Source of the DNA: Atractiella rhizophila
Taxonomy: Eukaryota
Direction of reading: 5' to 3'
DNA length: 20,000 nt
Assembly (NCBI GenBank): GCA_021432655.1
Contig: MU271230.1
Span: 113,651-133,650, forward strand
Shown here: piece after piece, positions 2 through 16,430 of the stretch
How positions within the stretch are numbered: position 1 is the first letter of the stretch
Layout of the letters: each line of letters starts with the position of its first letter
The notes under the pieces: model-generated
What the model saw: the letters and a program-made list of their open reading frames with translations, nothing else
Database searches by the model: none
What the model was told of the DNA's origin: nothing
Made by a program: the position numbers and the translations under genes

Positions 2-1182
2 GACCGTCATGCCTTGTCTATCAAGCTCTTCATTCTTCGCGCCAATGCGGAGTCAACTAAGCCGCTTGCTGTTTTGGTCGAGGAGTGGACGGCAAAGAAG
101 ACCACCCTCTTATGGAACGAAGATGGCGAAGAGACACTCACTCTCGCCACTTCGATATCTTTTTCGCTCGATTCACCTCTTCTCAGAAAACATGAAGACC
201 TTAGCGCCTTTATCCATGCCCTATTATCTTGGACTCCTGATGGCCACCTGGCAGACGACATTATCGCTATCGGGGATAAAAATTTTTCCACATCAATCGG
301 AACAGTCTTCCGTGCTCGTCACATCAATCTTAACCGTTGGGCTTGCTGAGGAGATTGTGGATGTCCTCACAAACTCGAAACCTTTGTGCATGCTGGCACC
401 AATTCGTGAATATATCAATCGCTTAGTCCTTGGTCCCATTCTACCTTTCAATGGCACTGCTTTATCACTTCAGCCGTTGACTGAAGTTCTCATATAGAAG
501 GCTCGTAAAAATGTACGATAAAGATGAATCTGAGCGGATCGGACTGCTGTCGTTTCGCAACGATTATGGAAACCTTGAATACGTCCTTCTAGCTGCCTTT
601 CACCACCTGGATGATGGGACAACAGCTTGCATCTTCATAGCAGAAACCTGGAATTTTCTGTATCTTCAAAGCCTGCTCTCCATAGCACTGTTTCAGGCCG
701 CTTTATTCTAAATAACATCCATATCTATTACATCACTGACGGCTCGATTGGCGCTGGCTCTTGGATTAACATTTCAACTGAAGGGGAATGTACAACAGGC
801 GCTGATACGGTTCGAAGAAGCGAAGGAGCTGTATGTGGTTGTGGAAGATCAGCAAGGCCGTGCCCACTGCATCCGTGGCATGGGGGAGATCGAGCAGGCT
901 CGTGGGCGTAACGAGGAAGCGTTGAAAAGGTTCGAGGAGGCGAAGGAGCTGTTTGTGGTTGTAGAAGATCAGCGTGGCCTTGCCCACTGCATTTTCAGCA
1001 TGGGGACGATCGAGCATAGTCGCGGGCTTGACGAGGAAGCACTGAAATGGTTCGAGCAGGCAAAGGAGCTGTATGTGGTTGCGGACGATGTGGGAGGTCA
1101 ACTTAACTGCCTTTCTAACATGGCGTCTGTTCATGCATCCAAAGGGATGGAAGAAGGTGCATCGCCCCCGAAAAGGCTTTGA
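2..1182 (+). pseudogene. Fungal NLR-like gene (NB-ARC helical/winged-helix region + TPR repeats), 5' end outside window, disrupted
   Basis: Frame 2 reads DRHALSIKL (GLPLA-like)...SISFSLDSP...LLSWTPDG; shift to frame 3 near 270 gives MLAPIREY; shift to frame 1 near 480 gives NDYGNLEYVL; in-frame TAA at 709-711 is followed in the same frame by 40-aa TPR repeats (748-1182). Two frameshifts plus one stop. Confidence 0.8.
781..1160 (+). repeat. 120-bp tandem repeat encoding 40-aa TPR units (about 3 copies)
   Basis: GGTTCGA(A/G)(G/C)A(A/G)GC(G/A)AAGGAGCTGT(A/T)TGTGGTTG recurs at 809, 929 and 1049; peptide FE(E/Q)AKEL(Y/F)VV three times. Confidence 0.95.
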
Positions 1183-1639: not shown

Positions 1640-3204
1640 TTCAATGGATGACGAACGATGAGCTCGACCTCGAACTCCTCCTTAACGCATCTAAATCCGA
1701 CAAACCCTCCTCTTCACGCTCCTTATAACCAGAGCTTGGACCTTGCACGGATCCAAACGGGGGGTGAGCCAAAAGGGGGCTGACGGGACAATACAGACGA
1801 CAACGGGTGTCGTTCGATGATCTCGTAGAAGACGGCTTCCAGCTTTGCAGATTACGCGTAACGGTCTTTAGAACATGGGGACTTCTTCGGAAAAGACTGC
1901 CGGGACCATGTGTTCGTACGCGCTGATGGGTTGTCGAACAGTCATTCCCAACCTTCCGAGCATGAGTGCGACCCACACTCCGAAGATGAGATCGAAAACA
2001 TCCACGGCCGGACTTCTTCTCCTTCGTGGACTTTGAGGAGGTTGTCAACTTGGAGCATGATGACTTGGAGCATGAAAGCGTGGAAAAGGTACGGATGCCG
2101 CCGTTGTTGATTACGAGGATTCGGAGCCTTTGTTCGTTCGTCTTCTTGACATTATCGGGGACTTTGAAAATCTTGACGGTCTGAACTTGGGATGGGCGGA
2201 GGACGAGAAAGGTGTTGGGGTAGCAGATCTGGAGGTTACGGGCGATGCGGTACGTGATGCGAAGTGAAATTTCTAAGGCAGAACTGCCGCTTTGACAAGG
2301 AATGGGCTGGGTTTGTACAGCTGCAATACTGAAAGATTTTGAACTCCGATGCCTACATTAGAACGAAGATCTTCTTGCGAATCGGCGTTGAATGCGTGGT
2401 CGGCATGAGACAAATCCTCAGTGTCTTCATGGTTGCTGGGATTTGATGAAGGCTGAGGCGCTTAGAGCTCGAGATGAAATCGATGACGATTGACCCAGAA
2501 CTGCTTGTTGAACGTGAGACGAAACTGAGGAAATGCCTGTCGGATCTAGACTAGAGCTACCAGGCGAGCGGCCAAAGAATACTTGAAACTGGCTGTGAGG
2601 AAGAGGAAGAAGAATCAAGGAATACGGAATACAGTACAGCTGCAGTCCGATCCGGTACGTACGAATGCATCAAAGAAAATCCAGACGAATGAGGATGTGA
2701 GAATATGAAGGGAGGGAAGCTTAGGATAACTTGATCAATTTTGTCAACTCGCGAAGGTGGAGGAACGAATGCTAGGAAAAAGACTATGAACCATCCAGCA
2801 CTAAGTTGAAGTTATGCTTCCGCTTGAGCAAAGGAGATATTCAGTACTATGAAGGCTACACAATATCGAATATCGAATTGACTAGGGAGAACATAAAATT
2901 CATCCCACCAACTCTCCAACTCATCCCTCGTCTCAAGGTCGACCACGCCAGGATTGATAAATTCAAGACTCATAGGACTCCTGAGACTCTTTCTCTGATC
3001 GTGCAGAAACGCTTGACACTCAACACACAAAACTCAGGAACAGTCCGATATCTTGCTGTCTACCACAAGCTTTTACATACATTAAAGTTACACCGCACAT
3101 CCCGAAAATGCATCAGCCCGTCCAACTCGCATTGCGACAGTCCACCTCCTCATAATCGACAAGATCTAGATGGACGAGGAACTCTGGGCGAAGCATATAA
3201 TGAG
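1640..3204 (+). pseudogene. Decayed coding region, probably the 5' part of the TET-like gene
   Basis: Protein-like acidic stretches (SFVDFEEVVNLEHDDLEHES, ILETGCEEEEEESRNTE) interrupted by TAG/TGA stops and frameshifts. ORF 2806-3216 joins exon 3257 in frame if 3205-3256 (GGGAGC...TTACAG) is an intron with a mutated GT donor. Confidence 0.45.
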
Positions 3205-3256
3205 GGGAGCCTTTGATTCATTCATCCCAATTGTCATATGAATAGGATCCTTACAG

Positions 3257-5461
3257 GCCAAGGGCCATGCAAAGAAGGAACGATGGGCCCAATTGCTGAG
3301 AACGTCCAAGTCTATGATGAACGCCCGACCTAATGGGATCGGGAACCTTGAGGGCCGCTATTATAGGCTGTTGGCCATACTATCTAGAGGCGCTACCAAG
3401 TCAGCTTTTTTCCCCATTCTCCCAGTTGCAAAATGACATATTTGTTATTCTGATGGTAGGGAGGCGGTGGAGAAGATGGTGACGCTGGAGGAACTACGAC
3501 ATGACGCCGCCGAGGTACTGGTGGTCACCGCATCCGGCACCAACGGGGTATTCTCAAAGGATGTCCACAATCCACTTTTTCTCTTGGTTCTGCTCTCAAT
3601 TGAGGTGAAGGATGAGAAACTATTCGCGCCTGGGGTTACTGGTTCGTTGCCCTTAATTTCTTCGTGTCGCAGTAGCAACGATTTCCAGGAATGACGCTAC
3701 AATGCTTCGCCCAGGAGCATTTGTTCGTGTCGAATATTGTTCCGACATTGCTAAAAGTTTCTATTGACTATGTCAGTTTCCACGGCCCTCCCCTGGTATC
3801 CGCTGACCTAGCATTCAGTCAGAGTCAAAAAGGGTTTATGGTGACCTCTTTCGGGTCGAGCGCAATCAGAAAATAAACTTCTGCACGACTTTCCCCTTCG
3901 CAGCCAAATGGATAGCTAAGATCAGCAGCGAAAGGGAGGTCCACAAGAAAATCGAGCGAGCTGCTGCACGTGCTTCGATTCGTATCCTTCGATTGAACCG
4001 TGTCCTGGATGCCAAAAAGGAGAAAGAAACGGACAACAAACTCTTTTTTCTTCACGGTCTGTTTCACTTTTGCTTTTCTGACGTCGGTGTAGGTGGCTGA
4101 GCCATCTCACAGACCCGTCTGGAGAAATTGGCCTCCCACCTTCCCCGATACGGAACCCGAAATCCCGAAGGACGAAAGATGCAAATGAGAGCCTGCGAAA
4201 AGTGCTCGAGTTATGCGACTTGGTGATTGTCGAACCCAGCTCCCATGAACCAGAGTCAGTTTATGTCCTGGACCAGGATTGGCTAGTAGAGAACAATCAT
4301 CCTGCGGCGGACCCAGACTGGATTCCAGAAAATGGCGATCGATTGCCTTTGGAAGCTTTAGTATTTTGTTCTTGTAATCATTTGCAAGCACGAATAACCC
4401 GCATCAAATCAACAGATTGCTAGCGAACATTTCAACATTGTCGATGACGACATGGATTGGGATGCGATAGACGCAATAATGTCTACTCTGGATCTACTTG
4501 CTCCGATAGTTCGGCACAAAGCGCAAGCCAATAGCTCTCGAGGGCACATGAGTGGATTTTCTGGCCAACGCGCGGTTCAGGTACGGAGGAGTGTTGGACC
4601 TTTTGCGCTGAAGAGCAATTGCTCCGGCAAGGTGAGTAGGTTCAGGGTTCCCGTTCTAGTTGAGTCAGATTCCTCTCTCCTGCATGTAGAGGCCTCGTGA
4701 AAATTTCGACGATGAAGACCTGATGGAATCTAAGCGCGCGGAAGGGGAAAGAAGAGATAGGTGTAAGCTGGAGCTGGCAGATACCAACAGTGGTACAGCA
4801 ACCGTCCATGCATCTCCAGTTGCTCAAATGGAGTGTTCAGTGGTCGGATGCCGCCTCTTGACTTTGATGGAAAAGGTTGTTCCAGAAATCTATTACGACT
4901 GGAGCATGTCCAACCTGGAGCATCCCTCAAAAGCAAATCTCCAATTTCTCCCTGTCACCCAGTACTGCGCTAGTGCCTACGTGGGACCATCTCATGTCGA
5001 CAAAACTGATCGCAACTTCACATACAGTCACAACGCATTCAATGAAGAGTACGAGATGTGCCCTTTGGCGAATTCAATGTTCTTTCCGGCATTTGATGTG
5101 AGTTCTAGCCGTCGAGGGCGGACGACTGACAATATCTGTCCAGCTTGTCCTAACGACGCCTGGAGGTTCGGTGCACGGTTGGAGGAGCCGCGACCTGTAC
5201 CACGCGACGCTCCTCGCGCCTCCATATTATGGTCATAGTCGCGAAGTCGATGGTGAACCTCTTTTTCGGGCGGCGATGGGCATAGTTACATTGGCGAGTA
5301 GCACCGTCATAAAAGAGCTCGGCAAAGGCAACCTGGAACACGAAATCTACAGACACGAGGGTTGGAACGCAACATCCCTGGAGAAGTTAACTGCAGTAGC
5401 TCAAAAGAGAACGAATAAGTACACTTGCAGACGCTGGGCAAAGATGCGGGGCGCAGCCTAA
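3257..5461 (+). CDS. Multi-exon gene with C-terminal TET/JBP-like 2OG-Fe(II) dioxygenase domain (about 610 aa from 3257; true start uncertain, first ATG 3314)
   Basis: Exons 3257-3399, 3460-3641, 3689-3771, 3819-4056, 4113-4360, 4416-4631, 4690-5097, 5144-5461; all seven introns GT..AG, 46-60 nt, phase-compatible, no stops. Motifs RGHMSGFSGQR, YVGPSHVDKTD (HxD at 4993-5001), MFFPAFD|LVLTTPGGSVHGWRSRDLYHAT (His 5201), LFRAAMG (Arg 5267). Possible extra in-frame intron 4763-4819. Confidence 0.75.
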
Positions 5462-5624
5462 CGCCACATGGTACTGTTGAAGTGAAGACGCTGAAGTCGT
5501 GTATAGTCCATTGTAGGATTAGTTACTTCGTTTGGTCATTCTTTTTCACATCTGAAAATGTGTTCACGAGAAGAGAGATTTTGATGTTGTTCTATTCTTC
5601 AACCCAACTCCCTTTCCGACATTC

Positions 5625-6279
5625 ATGGCACCACCTCGTCCAGAAAGAGGTCAACGTCCAACTTCATAGTGTTTACAGAAGGATGATTGTGAGAATTCAC
5701 ACAAGGATCAGGAACCAGTCAATGAGTGGCGTCTACAGTACCATCTGCACCAGCTAACCCCATCCAGAGATCACAGGACAGCTTGGAGCCGCCACAAGCA
5801 TCAGAACCAGTGGTGGATGGACCTGAGTACTTTGTTGTCGAAGTTGGTGATGAAGAGGAGTCAGGACTCTGTTGATCGCCAGCATGACATTGACATATGG
5901 ACATGCAGGGATTCCCACATTGTTTTTCACGGCGAAGAACTTGGCGATGACTCTGAAATAGAATCAGAGTAAGTAGGTATGACTTAGTAATGATTTAACA
6001 ATGTCACAGTGCAATAACCCTACTTTCTTACCATCCGAGGAAAGCGAAGGGATAATCTCTGATACCCGTCACACAGCTGCGGATATACAAGCCCACAATA
6101 GAACATATCCCTGCATACCCCTAGCTGTCTTTAACAAGGAGGCTACTAGTATGCTCCTAACTGTGGGCATTTTGAGGAAGAGAAAGACAGAGGCTCTCAA
6201 GAACTATGTTCATTATGAGGCCATCCTTGAGCTGATGAGGTGCCAAACATTACAATGTGAAAATGTCAAGAATTCATGA
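5625..6279 (+). pseudogene. Decayed intron-containing gene of unknown function
   Basis: ATG at 5625 (MAPPRPERGQ), acidic stretch with stops and frameshifts, GTAAGT...CACAG intron-like segment about 5969-6009, then open frame to 6279. Confidence 0.35.
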
Positions 6280-9554: not shown

Positions 9555-10100
9555 AAGCTTTCCCTGTCATTGTCCACACCGTCCCCACCTCCTTTGACGT
9601 CGACTCTGAGGAATAGATCCAAAGGTGAATCAGCCCCACAACCTCAGCGACCACATTTCTAAATTAACCTGGTGCCATACTAAGAAGAATCCAACCTCCT
9701 CCAACCATGAGAAGGTGAAAACTCGCTCCTCCCTTATCATTTATCTCAACAATGCCTCAGCCGCCAACATGTTGATAGAGTTTAGTCTCATCATTGACAG
9801 GAAAGTGTATATGGCAAAGAAATTGATCAGAGATGTCCTCTATTGCTTTAAGTGTCAGCAGCCTGGTCTCATCGCTACAAAATGCAAAGCACCCGTTTCC
9901 TGTGGGGTTTGTGCTGGCCCTCACTTTACTAAGTCTTGCTCCATTTCATGTGCAAATACCATTCCATGTCACAATGCACAATCTTGCTCCCATAGACCAA
10001 TTGAGTGTTCTTTATGTAGTCCTACAAAACATAATGCTTCGTAAGGTTCGGAGTGTGATGTCCTGAACGAACTGAGGCTCTTGCATCGTATTCAAGTTGG
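9555..10100 (+). mobile_element. Tad1-like LINE ORF1 (gag-like) remnant
   Basis: KAFPVIVHTVPTSFD, SSLIIYL...AAN.LI, zinc knuckles CFKCQQPGLIATKC (His lost), CGVCAGPHFTKSC and CSLCSPTKHNAS*GSEC; stops and frameshift; probably extends upstream to about 9100; no ORF2 recognised. Confidence 0.85.
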
Positions 10101-10639: not shown

Positions 10640-11640
10640 AATTACATTGTACGATGCAAGTATGATCGTGTCTACCAACATCACAGACATATTGAATGTG
10701 CACAAAGCTAGGGTCATGTCCAACATGAACAAAGAATTGTTGCATGCTTGCTCCGCCTGAGATGTCAAATCCGGGTGCATTGAAGGAGGAACTGCTCGAA
10801 ATGTATATACATTCTATCACGCTCGAAATCTTTTTCCGGTTACTTACTGTTGAACCTTGGGTATAAAGGGTTAATCTGCACTGTTGGGAATGACTGGTCA
10901 TTTTAGTGCAATTGGCTAAAACCAGCATGGTAGCGAGAGCTGACCCTGCATACCCAGGTTCGAACCCCTGTCTGAGCACTTTAGCCATATTGTGAGAGTG
11001 GGGCAAAACCACTATAAAAGCTGTTGAGTGGGTGCTCTTCCCCACTATAAATGATGGAAGGAAATGGTTGTGGCAGAGAAAGTGGTTGCAGACAGTACAG
11101 ATTAGGGAAGGGTGTTGAACCTTGGGTATAAAGGGTTAATCTGCACTGTTGGGAATGACTGGTCATTTTAGTGCAATTGGCTAAATCCAGCACTTGCCAC
11201 TGTTTATTGGTATGCCTATCATTCAGGGCAATGAAAATAATACCATAAACGTGAGAATTATGAACAGGTCCGCAGGTTATGAGCGGAAGATTCAGTTGAA
11301 GCACCGCCTGCCAAAATGGTTCCATATGAAAAGATGCATTGCAACAATCTAACACTCCTGAGTGTCAGTTGCTGTTGATGTTGTCCTTGTTGAATTCCCT
11401 GCTAGCACAGTTAGGTTGGAAGGTTTACCTGTCGGATATTAACCCTTGAAACTGACATCATGGACGTTTCGAAAGCAGGTGTTCAATCCTGTTAATTGCA
11501 CAGTGGAAGAGAGACACTTTGTCCATCATCAATTAGCAATTGAGCCTGAAAGGTCACAGCATGTATGGAGCAGACAACCATCTGCCATTAGTTGCAACAA
11601 AGGTTTCATCTCCCTCCTGAGCTGGAACAACATTCGCTCT
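10640..11640 (-). pseudogene. Decayed intron-containing gene interrupted by the TRIM
   Basis: Protein-like frames with many TGA stops; removing the TRIM restores GTAAGTAACC...GAGCAG, an intron-like segment; downstream frame has CSCWT*P*LCAH. Confidence 0.3.
10848..11192 (+). mobile_element. TRIM (miniature non-autonomous LTR retrotransposon), 345 bp
   Basis: LTRs 10848-10927 and 11113-11192 (80 bp, TG..CA, one mismatch); PBS TGGTAGCGAGAG from 10928; PPT AGGGAAGGG 11104-11112; 5-bp TSD CTTAC/CTTGC. Confidence 0.93.
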
Positions 11641-14262: not shown

Positions 14263-15887
14263 TGTTAGTTGTAGTGTGCTGTTTTGGTCATCTGCCTTGT
14301 ATGACTCATATGAGTCATATGAGTCATCACTATGTAGTTTAGTTCTGCCTAGGAGTGTTGGTGCTCATTATTGACCACCAACTACTCCTAGGTATGTCTC
14401 TCTATACTTCTCTAATGTCTCATTATTGACCACCAACTACTCCTAGCCTTAGATCCTTACATGGTAGCGAGAACTGGTGGCTAGGATTACACCCATCACC
14501 TTCCTCCTCCTCCAGACCACATTTTCACCCCTCCTGCACTCAAGTTTCGCTCAATTTCGATGATCAAGACAGATCTGTGATCCTCAGACCTTCCTTTATC
14601 ACCTCAGAAGGTGTCTGCTTACTCAGGAATCAAGAAATATCGAAATCTATCACCTTACCACCCATCTCCTGCCTCAAAACGCACTTTGCCACCCTGGACT
14701 TAAACTTTGATGAATTTAGACGTTATAGGGCTTATTTTGATCGTGAAACACTGCGCTACAACTTTACTAGGAACCACCTTGGTCACAATAAGCGAAAATT
14801 TCGAGATAGCCACTCCATCACCTCCTTCATACCCCTAAAACACAATTTTCGACTTTTTGAAGTCAGATCAGGTCTGATGTGGACAATTTTATCACCATTG
14901 GATTCACAATAGGCTATTCTACTATCCTACAACAGATAACCTTGATCAGACAAGTCAAAATTTCGAAATTTGCCACCATCACATCAACATCACAACAGCC
15001 CTACCTCCTTTCTCCATCACATCAGTGGATCTTAGGACTCAACCACAGGCTCTGGGAGGATGTTTGGGATGGAAATGGCTCTTAATGGGTTGGAATTTGC
15101 TGGGCTGAACAGTCTTGCTGCAGCAAATGATGTCACTATGCCCCAAGCAAGCCTTGAGTGGATAGCAGACACTGGTGCAACTTCCCACATGTCTCCCCAT
15201 CGTCATTGGTTCAGAACCTACCAGAAGAAAGTTATTCCTATTAGAGTAGCAAGTGGAGAAGTGATTTGGAGTGCTGGGATTGGGAGCTTGATCTTTGAAA
15301 CCAAGTTGGGGGAGAAGAAGACCACTACTATTACCATTTCAGACGTCCTACATGTCCCCAAGCTCTGGAACAACCTCCTGTCAGTCTTCAGGCTAACCAT
15401 CTACAAAGGAATGAGGGTCTCCATCAAGCACAACAAGGTTCTCTTCTTCCAGCATCAAAAACTCTGCCTTACTGCCACTGTGGACTACAAGAATGGAAGC
15501 ATGGCTGGGATACTCAATGGGAACACCCTTCCTGCTCCAGAATTTGCTGGAAATGCTTCCACACTGCCTATGGATGCCTCTCTGTGGCACAGAAGACTTG
15601 GACATCTTAATTATGAGGACATCAAGCGTCTGAAGAGGAAGGAACTTGTGAATGGGATGATTTTGGACCTGGAGGATGATCCAGACCCTATTTGCGAGCC
15701 ATGCCTAGCTGGGAAGCAACATAGGGTCTTTAATAAGTCCACAGAGACTAGGGAGAAGGAGATATTGGCTAGAATCAGCTCAGACCTACATGGACCTCTT
15801 CCAGTCACATCCAGGGAAAGATATCAATATTGGGTCACCTTCATTGATGAAGCAACAAATCATTGCACCATCGCCTTCCTTAAGAGT
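14263..15887 (+). mobile_element. 3'-truncated Ty1/copia LTR retrotransposon
   Basis: Putative 5' LTR about 14263 (TGTTAG; start uncertain) to 14461 (..TACA); PBS TGGTAGCGAGA 14462-14472; gag not recognisable; pol homology stops at IAFLKS (about 15887). Confidence 0.9.
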
Positions 15888-15902
15888 TCCTGGCATCATT
15901 AA
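15060..15902 (+). CDS. Copia pol fragment: protease, GAG-pre-integrase, start of integrase core
   Basis: WIADTGATSHM, VLHVPKLWNNLLSV, LWHRRLGH, CEPCLAGKQHR, ISSDLHGPL, YWVTFIDEAT; protease followed directly by integrase is copia order. Confidence 0.95.
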   Translation: MFGMEMALNGLEFAGLNSLAAANDVTMPQASLEWIADTGATSHMSPHRHWFRTYQKKVIPIRVASGEVIWSAGIGSLIFETKLGEKKTTTITISDVLHVPKLWNNLLSVFRLTIYKGMRVSIKHNKVLFFQHQKLCLTATVDYKNGSMAGILNGNTLPAPEFAGNASTLPMDASLWHRRLGHLNYEDIKRLKRKELVNGMILDLEDDPDPICEPCLAGKQHRVFNKSTETREKEILARISSDLHGPLPVTSRERYQYWVTFIDEATNHCTIAFLKSSWHH

Positions 15903-15918
15903 CACTTTAAGGATACGA

Positions 15919-16430
15919 ATGGCAGATTTCTCAGATTTCAATCATCAACCTCCTGAGCTTCCAGGTGATAGAAGAAGGAAGAAGGTGCTGACCGACAGAG
16001 AGAGGAAGGCTGCAGAATCAGCCACAATTGCATATGATTGGGATCAGATATACGGAGAGCACATTGATGGCATAGGTGACTTGTTACATAATCGATCATC
16101 TAGATATCTGAAGATGCTGAGTGGTTTGTTTGAGAGGTTGTTTCTTGTCAGTGAAGGAGAACAAATCAGGTTAATTGATGTGTACATAGAACGACTGCAA
16201 TATATCAGGAAAACAGTTTCCTGGATTAATGTGAAATGGATAAGTTGGTGCATCGATCTGTTTGGTATGTTTAAACCACTCAGATTAACTTAATACTTTC
16301 TCAGGTGTATGTTCTAGAGCTATGGGCAGATCTCTTTCCGAAAGGAGGTTGGGAACAGAATCTGAAGAGGATTCACCATTTGAGTCCTCATTGTTCTATT
16401 TGGAACAGGATGGGACAATCTGTGAGTAGG
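15919..16430 (+). pseudogene. Unknown intron-containing gene fragment abutting the copia truncation
   Basis: ATG 15919 (MADFSDFNHQPP...), open to 16264; intron-like GTATGT...CTCAG 16265-16304 continues in frame (GVCSRAMGRSLSERRLG...); decays afterwards. Confidence 0.4.

Follow-up and report, generated by a model that had tools for sequence, protein, structure and literature searches.

A 20,000-nucleotide (nt) stretch of the genome of the fungus Atractiella rhizophila (GenBank assembly GCA_021432655.1, contig MU271230.1, positions 113,651 to 133,650 of the forward strand), hereafter called the window, raises the question of whether a series of fragmented open reading frames (ORFs) on its plus strand forms a single gene and, if so, whether that gene encodes an enzyme that oxidizes bases in DNA. 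An initial annotation of positions 3257 to 5461 had proposed an eight-exon TET/JBP-like dioxygenase preceded by a long N-terminal region. Iyer and colleagues reportedly described expansions of TET/JBP genes in basidiomycetes in 2014. We found that the gene is real, spliced, and expressed, with expression judged from the contigs of sequencing runs, the principal one of a kind that we infer. Its C-terminal part, encoded by exons 6 to 9, is probably a very divergent TET/JBP-like Fe(II)/2-oxoglutarate dioxygenase, as suggested by motif patterns, protein language-model features, and alignments that fall short of significance. All coordinates below are positions in the window, and the gene lies on its plus strand.

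The eight exons originally listed join into an 1836-nt frame in which 611 codons run uninterrupted up to a TAA at 5459-5461, and each of the seven introns between them runs from GT to AG over 46 to 60 nt. A search of public sequencing runs for the gene returned one strong match, X7 (0.72 of sampled words), and six runs with small shares. Contigs of four runs (X1, X2, X3, and X7) were aligned to positions 2700 to 5700. The X7 contigs contained GT..AG joints for 7 of the 7 introns, X1 contigs independently showed those at 4361-4415 and 4632-4689, and an X2 contig showed that at 5098-5143. The proposal of seven introns and about 610 stop-free codons thus stands, with all of the splice junctions, the check named for it, seen in X7 contigs and the proteins of paralogous genes in agreement. 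The library kind of X7 is not recorded, and we take complementary DNA to be the simplest explanation of its spliced contigs. X3, a run recorded as RNA, contributed two contigs, which speak neither for nor against splicing; one of them is unspliced over 4237-4387, into intron 5.

A protein search with exons 7 and 8 matched only two proteins, the A. rhizophila hypotheticals referred to here as P0001 (75% identity) and P0002 (77%), and a search with P0001 added P0003 and P0004. P0004 is BT69DRAFT_824524, a 265-residue protein that is 100% identical to the window from part of exon 3 through exon 6. This identity establishes the window gene as locus BT69DRAFT_824524. The gene is therefore not wholly hidden, as had been supposed, since GenBank holds a model of it, but that model (3612-4637) is limited to exons 4 to 6 and part of exon 3. 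Its start is an out-of-frame ATG at 3612, inside exon 2, from which it passes into exon 3, and its end lies two residues past exon 6; lacking exons 1 and 2 and exons 7 to 9, it stops before the part that looks catalytic. There are at least three paralogous loci, making a family of at least four loci with the window gene. In an exhaustive HMMER profile search of 1,835,955,588 representatives at E ≤ 0.001, the four proteins returned all belonged to the family itself, and no rust or mushroom protein matched. By sequence, then, the family is an orphan. A full-text search of the literature returned nothing on such a gene in A. rhizophila.

X7 also revealed an intron absent from the initial list, an in-frame GT..AG segment of 48 nt at 4793-4840. 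The deposited proteins P0001 and P0002 lack exactly the 16 codons of this segment. Because the joint in X7 and the codons skipped by the paralogues coincide, the true model has nine exons and 595 codons counted from 3257. The eight-exon proposal was right in each of its introns but one exon short, and position 3257, its left end, is not a start. Paralogues back the splice junctions along the whole gene, P0003 for introns 1 to 6 and P0001 for introns 6 to 8, and P0005, a 116-residue database peptide, is the exact spliced product over the last intron.

The 5' half of the gene comprises five exons. Exon 1 (3257-3399) lies in a frame open from 3242, in which the first ATG is at 3314 (Met codons at 3314 and 3317), and P0002 and P0003 align with it from 3254/3257 on. 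Both proteins skip intron 1 (3400-3459, 60 nt, GT..AG; X7 joint 3399>3460). Exon 2 (3460-3641), defined by the spliced ORF and the paralogue alignment, is followed by intron 2 (3642-3688, 47 nt, GT..AG; X7 joint 3640>3688, cut +1), the junction of which recurs in P0003. Exon 3 (3689-3771) is present in P0003 and P0004 and skipped by the deposited model of P0002; beyond intron 3 (3772-3818, 47 nt, GT..AG; X7 joint 3771>3819), exon 4 (3819-4056) is matched at 100% identity by P0004. Intron 4 (4057-4112, 56 nt, GT..AG; X7 joint 4055>4112, cut +1) leads to exon 5 (4113-4360), again defined by the spliced ORF and the paralogue alignment, and intron 5 (4361-4415, 55 nt, GT..AG) is removed by the joint 4360>4416 in both X7 and X1.

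The part that resembles TET/JBP proteins begins in exon 6 (4416-4631), which carries the motif MSGFSGQR (4548-4571) and in which the P0001 model starts, at the Met of MDWDAIDAI. Intron 6 (4632-4689, 58 nt, GT..AG; joint 4629>4688, cut +2, in X7 and X1) separates it from exon 7 (4690-4792), which encodes a charged linker, RPRENFDDEDL...ADTNS. After the newly recognized intron 7 (X7 joint 4791>4840, cut +1), exon 8 (4841-5097) carries YYDWS (4891), SHVDKTD (4990-5010), and FFPAFD (5080-5097). At intron 8 (5098-5143, 46 nt, GT..AG; joint 5097>5144 in X7 and X2), P0001 and P0005 read FFPAF[DN]|LVL. Exon 9 (5144-5461) contains LVLTTPGGSVHGWRSRDLYHAT, with its His at 5201-5203, then LFRAAMGIV, with its Arg at 5267-5269, and the stop codon. 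Between 5173 and 5688, one X7 contig follows the genome colinearly, which indicates that there is no intron beyond intron 8.

The other runs yielded observations of their own. Contigs of X1, X2, and X3, which come from other samples or studies, match the gene, most with 0 or 1 differences, and one X2 contig, with 12 differences, is paralogue-like. A. rhizophila apparently was present in these samples and appears to have expressed the gene there. In one low-depth X1 contig, the exon 6 donor at 4629 is spliced to 5026/5027 as acceptor, which removes 396 nt, the HxD motif among them, and would shift the frame; this contig may represent an aberrant isoform or a chimera.

At the 5' end of the gene, position 3257 serves neither as a start codon nor as a splice acceptor; for the acceptor, the evidence is an X7 contig that follows the genome colinearly from 3128 to 3357. 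Upstream, in the frame of the main ORF, an ATG at 3170 opens 23 codons closed by a TGA at 3239-3241 (3170-3241, plus strand), which could be an upstream ORF or the remnant of an ancestral start closed by a nonsense codon. The colinear contig has 0 other letters, so the TGA is present in RNA-like sequence as well. From the first in-frame ATG downstream, at 3314, the gene has 576 codons. The residues encoded by 3257-3313 (AKGHAKKERW...SKS), upstream of that ATG, are conserved in P0002 and P0003. Together, the TGA and these conserved residues suggest that the window copy may have lost its original N terminus to a nonsense codon and may begin translation at 3314. A 24-nt GT..AG stretch at 3233-3256, considered as an intron that would remove the TGA, was rejected as too short, and the X7 contig is unspliced over 3128-3357.

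The paralogues are 62 to 84% identical over the compared exons. Comparison of the window gene with X7 contigs of expressed paralogues listed 39 differences (28 further ones exist); among those listed, 28 are synonymous and 11 nonsynonymous, and 29 fall at third codon positions. Only synonymous differences affect the codons for the two candidate His ligands (HxD and distal) and for the distal Arg, and none of the listed differences is in the Asp codon. The gene is under purifying selection. The deposited model of P0001 omits 19 residues that include the distal Arg strand, a stretch of 19 codons that evolves as coding sequence. That of P0002 runs through the last intron and ends before the distal His, and in it Cys replaces the Arg of the GQR motif. 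Some of the paralogue copies, or their annotations, are defective.

What might the C-terminal part encode? All of the motifs on which the initial annotation was based, namely, an HxD (SHVD), FFP.FDLV...PGGS, W.S..LYHAT, and a distal Arg, were located in the spliced frame. SHVD (4990-5001) supplies a His at 4993-4995 and an Asp at 4999-5001, with a further Asp at 5008-5010 (SHVDKTD). FFPAFD|LVLTTPGGS spans the junction of exons 8 and 9 (5080-5097 and then 5144 onward), W.S..LYHAT supplies the distal His, and LFRAAMG supplies the distal Arg. At the sequence level, a candidate 2-His-1-carboxylate triad, HxD...H, is present. P0001 and P0005 retain both the HxD and the distal His, and P0002 retains the HxD. 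Candidates for an arginine that binds 2-oxoglutarate occur in LFRAAMG, 22 residues past the His and followed by Ala-Ala, and in MSGFSGQR.

We compared these motifs with a reference set consisting of Mycobacterium phage Cooper gp2, 120 relatives, and 41 relatives from IMG/VR; bacterial genomes searched with PF12851 gave no member, with matches in 0 of 5 and 0 of 401. The phage consensus runs SRSRTFGYAPRRP, DWR, YHRDGFN, LHLPEY..V.P..D.TV.......VHG, YRISVVYY, and the window protein has, in the same order, SRGHMSGFSGQRA, DWS, SHVDKTD, MFFPAFDLVLTTPGGSVHGWRSRDLYH, LFRAAMGIV. An Asp or Asn three residues after the HxD occurs in both (window HVDKTD, phage consensus YHRDGFN). Residue counts between the motifs run HxD-32-P-23-H-22-R in the window protein versus HxD-27-P-23-H-15-R in the phage TET/JBP proteins. 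The best local alignments by hhalign, although not significant, land on two signature motifs in colinear order, pairing MFFPAFNLVLKTPGGSVHGWRSRDLYH with LHLPEYDVVVPCGDGSVTFFEGYRLVH of Cooper gp2 and SRRRMSGFSGRRA with SRSRTFGYAPRRP; within the latter, MSGFSGQR aligns to the phage TFGYAPRR. MAFFT recovers the alignment of SRRRMSGFSGRRA with SRSRTFGYAPRRP as well as the DW[SR] match.

Language-model features gave a concordant answer. A look-up of P0001 in the ESM Atlas placed clusters of Tet_JBP (PF12851) at the top, with a score of 0.95 and with 210 and 202 of 256 features shared. Tet_JBP was carried by 23 of the 30 matches, among which there was also one basidiomycete cluster without a family. 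About 1 shuffled protein per 100 attains 0.95, and the look-up yields no alignment. The C-terminal domain, of about 270 residues, is similar in length to the Tet_JBP clusters matched by these features.

A number of results weigh against membership in TET/JBP. No Pfam family was matched at E ≤ 1 by eight pieces of the window (seven single exons and one upstream ORF) or at E ≤ 10 by P0001 to P0005, which fall below the PF12851 cut-off of 34.9 bits; the HMMER comparison with Pfam Tet_JBP proposed in the initial annotation was thus negative. Searches of PDB sequences at E ≤ 10, with single proteins and with a profile, gave no TET or other oxygenase, PHROGs and phage genomes (tblastn) held nothing relevant, and the exhaustive profile search recovered only the four proteins of the family itself. 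None of the hhalign P values (0.13, 0.27, 0.38, and 0.32) was significant, and MAFFT left HVD unaligned with HRD. A hidden Markov model (HMM) of 120 phage TET/JBP proteins gave the spliced C-terminal 297 residues 1.5 bits, which 28 of 3000 shuffles reached, a result that by itself counts in favor of the assignment. The score of P0001 with the same HMM was reached by 137 of 3000 shuffles, and with a broader HMM of 161 phage sequences the counts were 128 of 3000 for the window protein and 611 of 3000 for P0001. A reciprocal shuffle test gave 123, 152, and 121 of 1000, with two of five targets yielding no score. The shuffle tests are marginal and not robust. Further adverse points are that the distal Arg is followed by Ala-Ala rather than by the x-Ser of the phage consensus, that P0002 has a Cys for the Arg of GQR, and that in the window copy an in-frame TGA separates ATG 3170 from the point at which the conserved family alignment starts.

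These negative results can be calibrated. Cooper gp2 itself matches PF12851 with an E value of 4e-8 and 28.2 bits, under the curated cut-off, though it is an accepted member. Among PDB sequences, the phage TET/JBP profile reaches NgTet1 at an E value of only 0.013 to 0.017 and TET2 at 0.53, and an HHpred E value of 1.4 is given for fungal PE-type TETs in Kojima 2025 (PMC12730594). Because this profile is so weak on NgTet1 and TET2 and PE-type proteins score so poorly, the silence of sequence searches is weak evidence against TET/JBP membership. The oxidase first proposed for the locus is thus favored by its motifs, their spacing, and the ESM features, and it is disfavored by the absence of a Pfam, PDB, or PHROGs match and of significant profile similarity.

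Three other explanations were weighed against this balance. The family might be a fast-evolving orphan without dioxygenase activity, in which HxD...H...R and the language-model likeness are coincidental. Such an outcome would fit the lack of significant sequence or profile similarity to any known family and the marginal shuffle tests, and it draws on the shortness of the motif, which is conserved among paralogues so similar (62 to 84% identical) that its conservation says little. The models obtained with AlphaFold2 leave room for it as well: P0001, with an alignment of 5 rows, had a mean predicted local distance difference test (pLDDT) value of 33.6, and P0003, with 9 rows, had one of 36.6, which carry no fold information and make the models unfit for fold comparison. 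We nevertheless regard this explanation as unlikely, in that coincidence would have to produce an ESM score of 0.95 with 23 of 30 matches in a single family, five colinear motif matches with phage-like spacing, in which the Pro and the distal His are exactly 23 residues apart, an HxDxxD base-contact pattern, and candidate catalytic codons that change only synonymously among paralogues. HxD...H...R is common to the whole 2-oxoglutarate/Fe(II) superfamily, and Tet_JBP belongs to the cupin clan. The protein could accordingly be a cupin-fold oxygenase outside TET/JBP, such as an AlkB-like enzyme or a hydroxylase of proteins or small molecules, with a substrate other than a DNA base. The language model may capture clan-level features, and no structural test separates TET/JBP from the clan. 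Other 2-oxoglutarate oxygenase families in Pfam are equally without a match at E ≤ 10, however, the only family named among the ESM matches is Tet_JBP, and TET/JBP is the specific match for two motifs, the N-terminal G....R and HxDxx[DN]; we consider this alternative improbable, and more so than an inactive orphan family.

The last explanation is orthogonal to the family question and concerns the window copy alone, which might be a decaying paralogue, still transcribed but unable to yield the whole protein owing to the TGA at 3239-3241. The main ORF is in frame with both the ATG at 3170 and the TGA, and the conserved AKGHAKKERW...SKS precedes the first ATG that could be used, at 3314. The region is also rich in retroelement debris, and one X1 contig has the out-of-frame joint 4629>5026. 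In a decaying copy, however, one would have to account for 576 downstream codons that stay open across eight correctly spliced introns and for paralogue substitutions that are mostly synonymous. The N termini of the paralogues vary in length, moreover, and a start at 3314 would cost no recognized motif. We judge decay to be about as unlikely as an orphan family without activity.

If the C-terminal part is a TET/JBP-like dioxygenase, the last 250 to 300 or so residues (exons 6 to 9) would adopt the double-stranded beta-helix fold of Fe(II)/2-oxoglutarate dioxygenases. SHVD, with its His and Asp, and LYHAT, with its His, would supply the iron ligands, and 2-oxoglutarate would be held by the Arg of MSGFSGQR, that of LFRAAMG, or both. 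NgTet1 Asp234 and TET2 Asn1387 presumably each occupy the HxD+3 position, three residues past the Asp that binds the metal. With an Asp at this position in the window protein, 5-methylcytosine (5mC) is the predicted substrate. The Asp at HxD+3 (HVDKTD) is predicted to recognize a flipped-out 5mC through a contact with its exocyclic N4, as does Asp234 of NgTet1, for which the equivalent TET2 residue is given as Asn1387 (PMC4678852). The predicted reaction is conversion of 5mC to 5-hydroxymethylcytosine in DNA, with further oxidation possible.

The N-terminal 300 or so residues had been described as resisting assignment, and they continued to do so. No match to this part was found in Pfam (P0001 to P0005 at E ≤ 10) or among PDB sequences. 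ESM features of P0003 residues 1 to 325 gave only TPR- or ANAPC-like leads, at 0.85 to 0.87, and the Atlas's own poor model of this part (pLDDT 0.38) had template modeling scores of 0.30 to 0.42 to TPR proteins. The AlphaFold2 model of P0003, at the low pLDDT given above, contains helices only, and a TPR query against genome contigs found no relative. These models suggest that the region is probably helical, which we treat as a lead. It might serve in targeting or regulation of the enzyme. We tentatively propose, as a possibility somewhat short of an even chance, that the gene represents a further fungal TET/JBP-like type apart from the PU, AG, and PE types, one that is host encoded, found only in Atractiellomycetes, divergent enough to be recognizable solely by language-model features and the geometry of its motifs, equipped with an NgTet1-like Asp for recognizing 5mC, and fused to a helical, possibly TPR-like targeting or gating module of about 300 residues.

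The surroundings of the gene were examined for a mobile element that might carry it. Pfam searches of 109 stop-to-stop frames (12 and 97, in overlapping sets) found no transposase domain in the window, which also contains 0 inverted repeats of at least 25 nt. With neither a transposase nor inverted repeats, nothing in the window ties the gene to a TET-carrying DNA transposon; at this scale, a larger element is possible. Pfam matched just two stretches. At the left end, it identified TPR_12 repeats (712-1179, plus strand; E 2e-17) with three 120-nt tandem units (repeats at 799-1089), a stretch that is probably part of a larger TPR/NLR-like gene beyond the left end of the window. On the right, it found a copia-type Pol_BBD (E 6e-21)/gag_pre-integrase (E 5e-14) fragment on the plus strand at 15036-15899, continuing with changes of frame in 15709-16290, which looks like a degraded element. 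An ORF at 9610-10041 (plus strand) is rich in Cys, with CCHC-like spacing by eye that suggests a retroelement gag remnant, and has no Pfam match. Two direct repeats were also noted, one of 80 nt at 10848-10927 and 11113-11192 (99% identity, 265 nt apart), where overlapping minus-strand ORFs contain a repeated peptide, and a perfect one of 28 nt at 14364-14391 and 14419-14446 (55 nt apart).

Should the TET/JBP assignment be correct, oxidases of this kind would extend deeper into Pucciniomycotina than is apparent from the rust transposon copies known to date, in a form invisible to standard annotation, with Pfam silent and a deposited model that ends before the catalytic part. It would bear on how much DNA-modification machinery is hidden among fungal orphan genes, and it would offer biochemistry a compact enzyme that combines an NgTet1-type contact to cytosine with an unexplored N-terminal module. 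If the gene is also a further type, it would be a natural example of a TET core that has gained an arm for regulation or targeting. Were the assignment to prove wrong, what would remain is an expressed, species-restricted family of orphan genes.

How does the window gene compare with known TET/JBP systems? It shares the candidate HxD...H triad and the distal Arg with NgTet1 (PDB 4LT5 and 5CG8), human TET2, and CcTET, and with NgTet1 it also shares the Asp three residues past the HxD, presumably the position of Asp234. CcTET differs at the matching position, where, by residue numbers, Gly331 lies three residues after Asp328 (PMC12730594). Relative to PF12851 as a whole, the window family lacks a significant sequence or profile match, carries a charged insert of about 35 residues between the N-terminal G....R motif and the core, and has Arg-Ala-Ala where the family has Arg-x-Ser. 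The closest parallel in motif order is with actinophage proteins of the type of Cooper gp2, which serves as a TET/JBP reference in the legend to Fig. 7 of PMC12730594. With these, the window protein shares colinear S.R..G[FY]....R, DW[SR], HxDxx[DN], P.[FY][DN].V....[GD][GS][ST]V......H, and an R followed by a hydrophobic strand, together with an identical interval of 23 residues between the Pro and the distal His, a similarity that is not statistically significant. The phage proteins stand alone at about 290 to 320 residues, whereas the window protein has some 300 additional N-terminal residues and a gene with introns. Among fungi, Kojima 2025 describes the transposon-borne TET/JBP types PU, AG, and PE, of which PE is nearly invisible to sequence methods and was recognized by structure; Atractiella is unmentioned in its text and one supplement (PMC12730594). 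Like those types, the window gene belongs to a set of multicopy, lineage-restricted TET-like genes in Basidiomycota, and it differs from them in its fusion to a long N-terminal region and, from the PE type, in having HxD rather than HxE.

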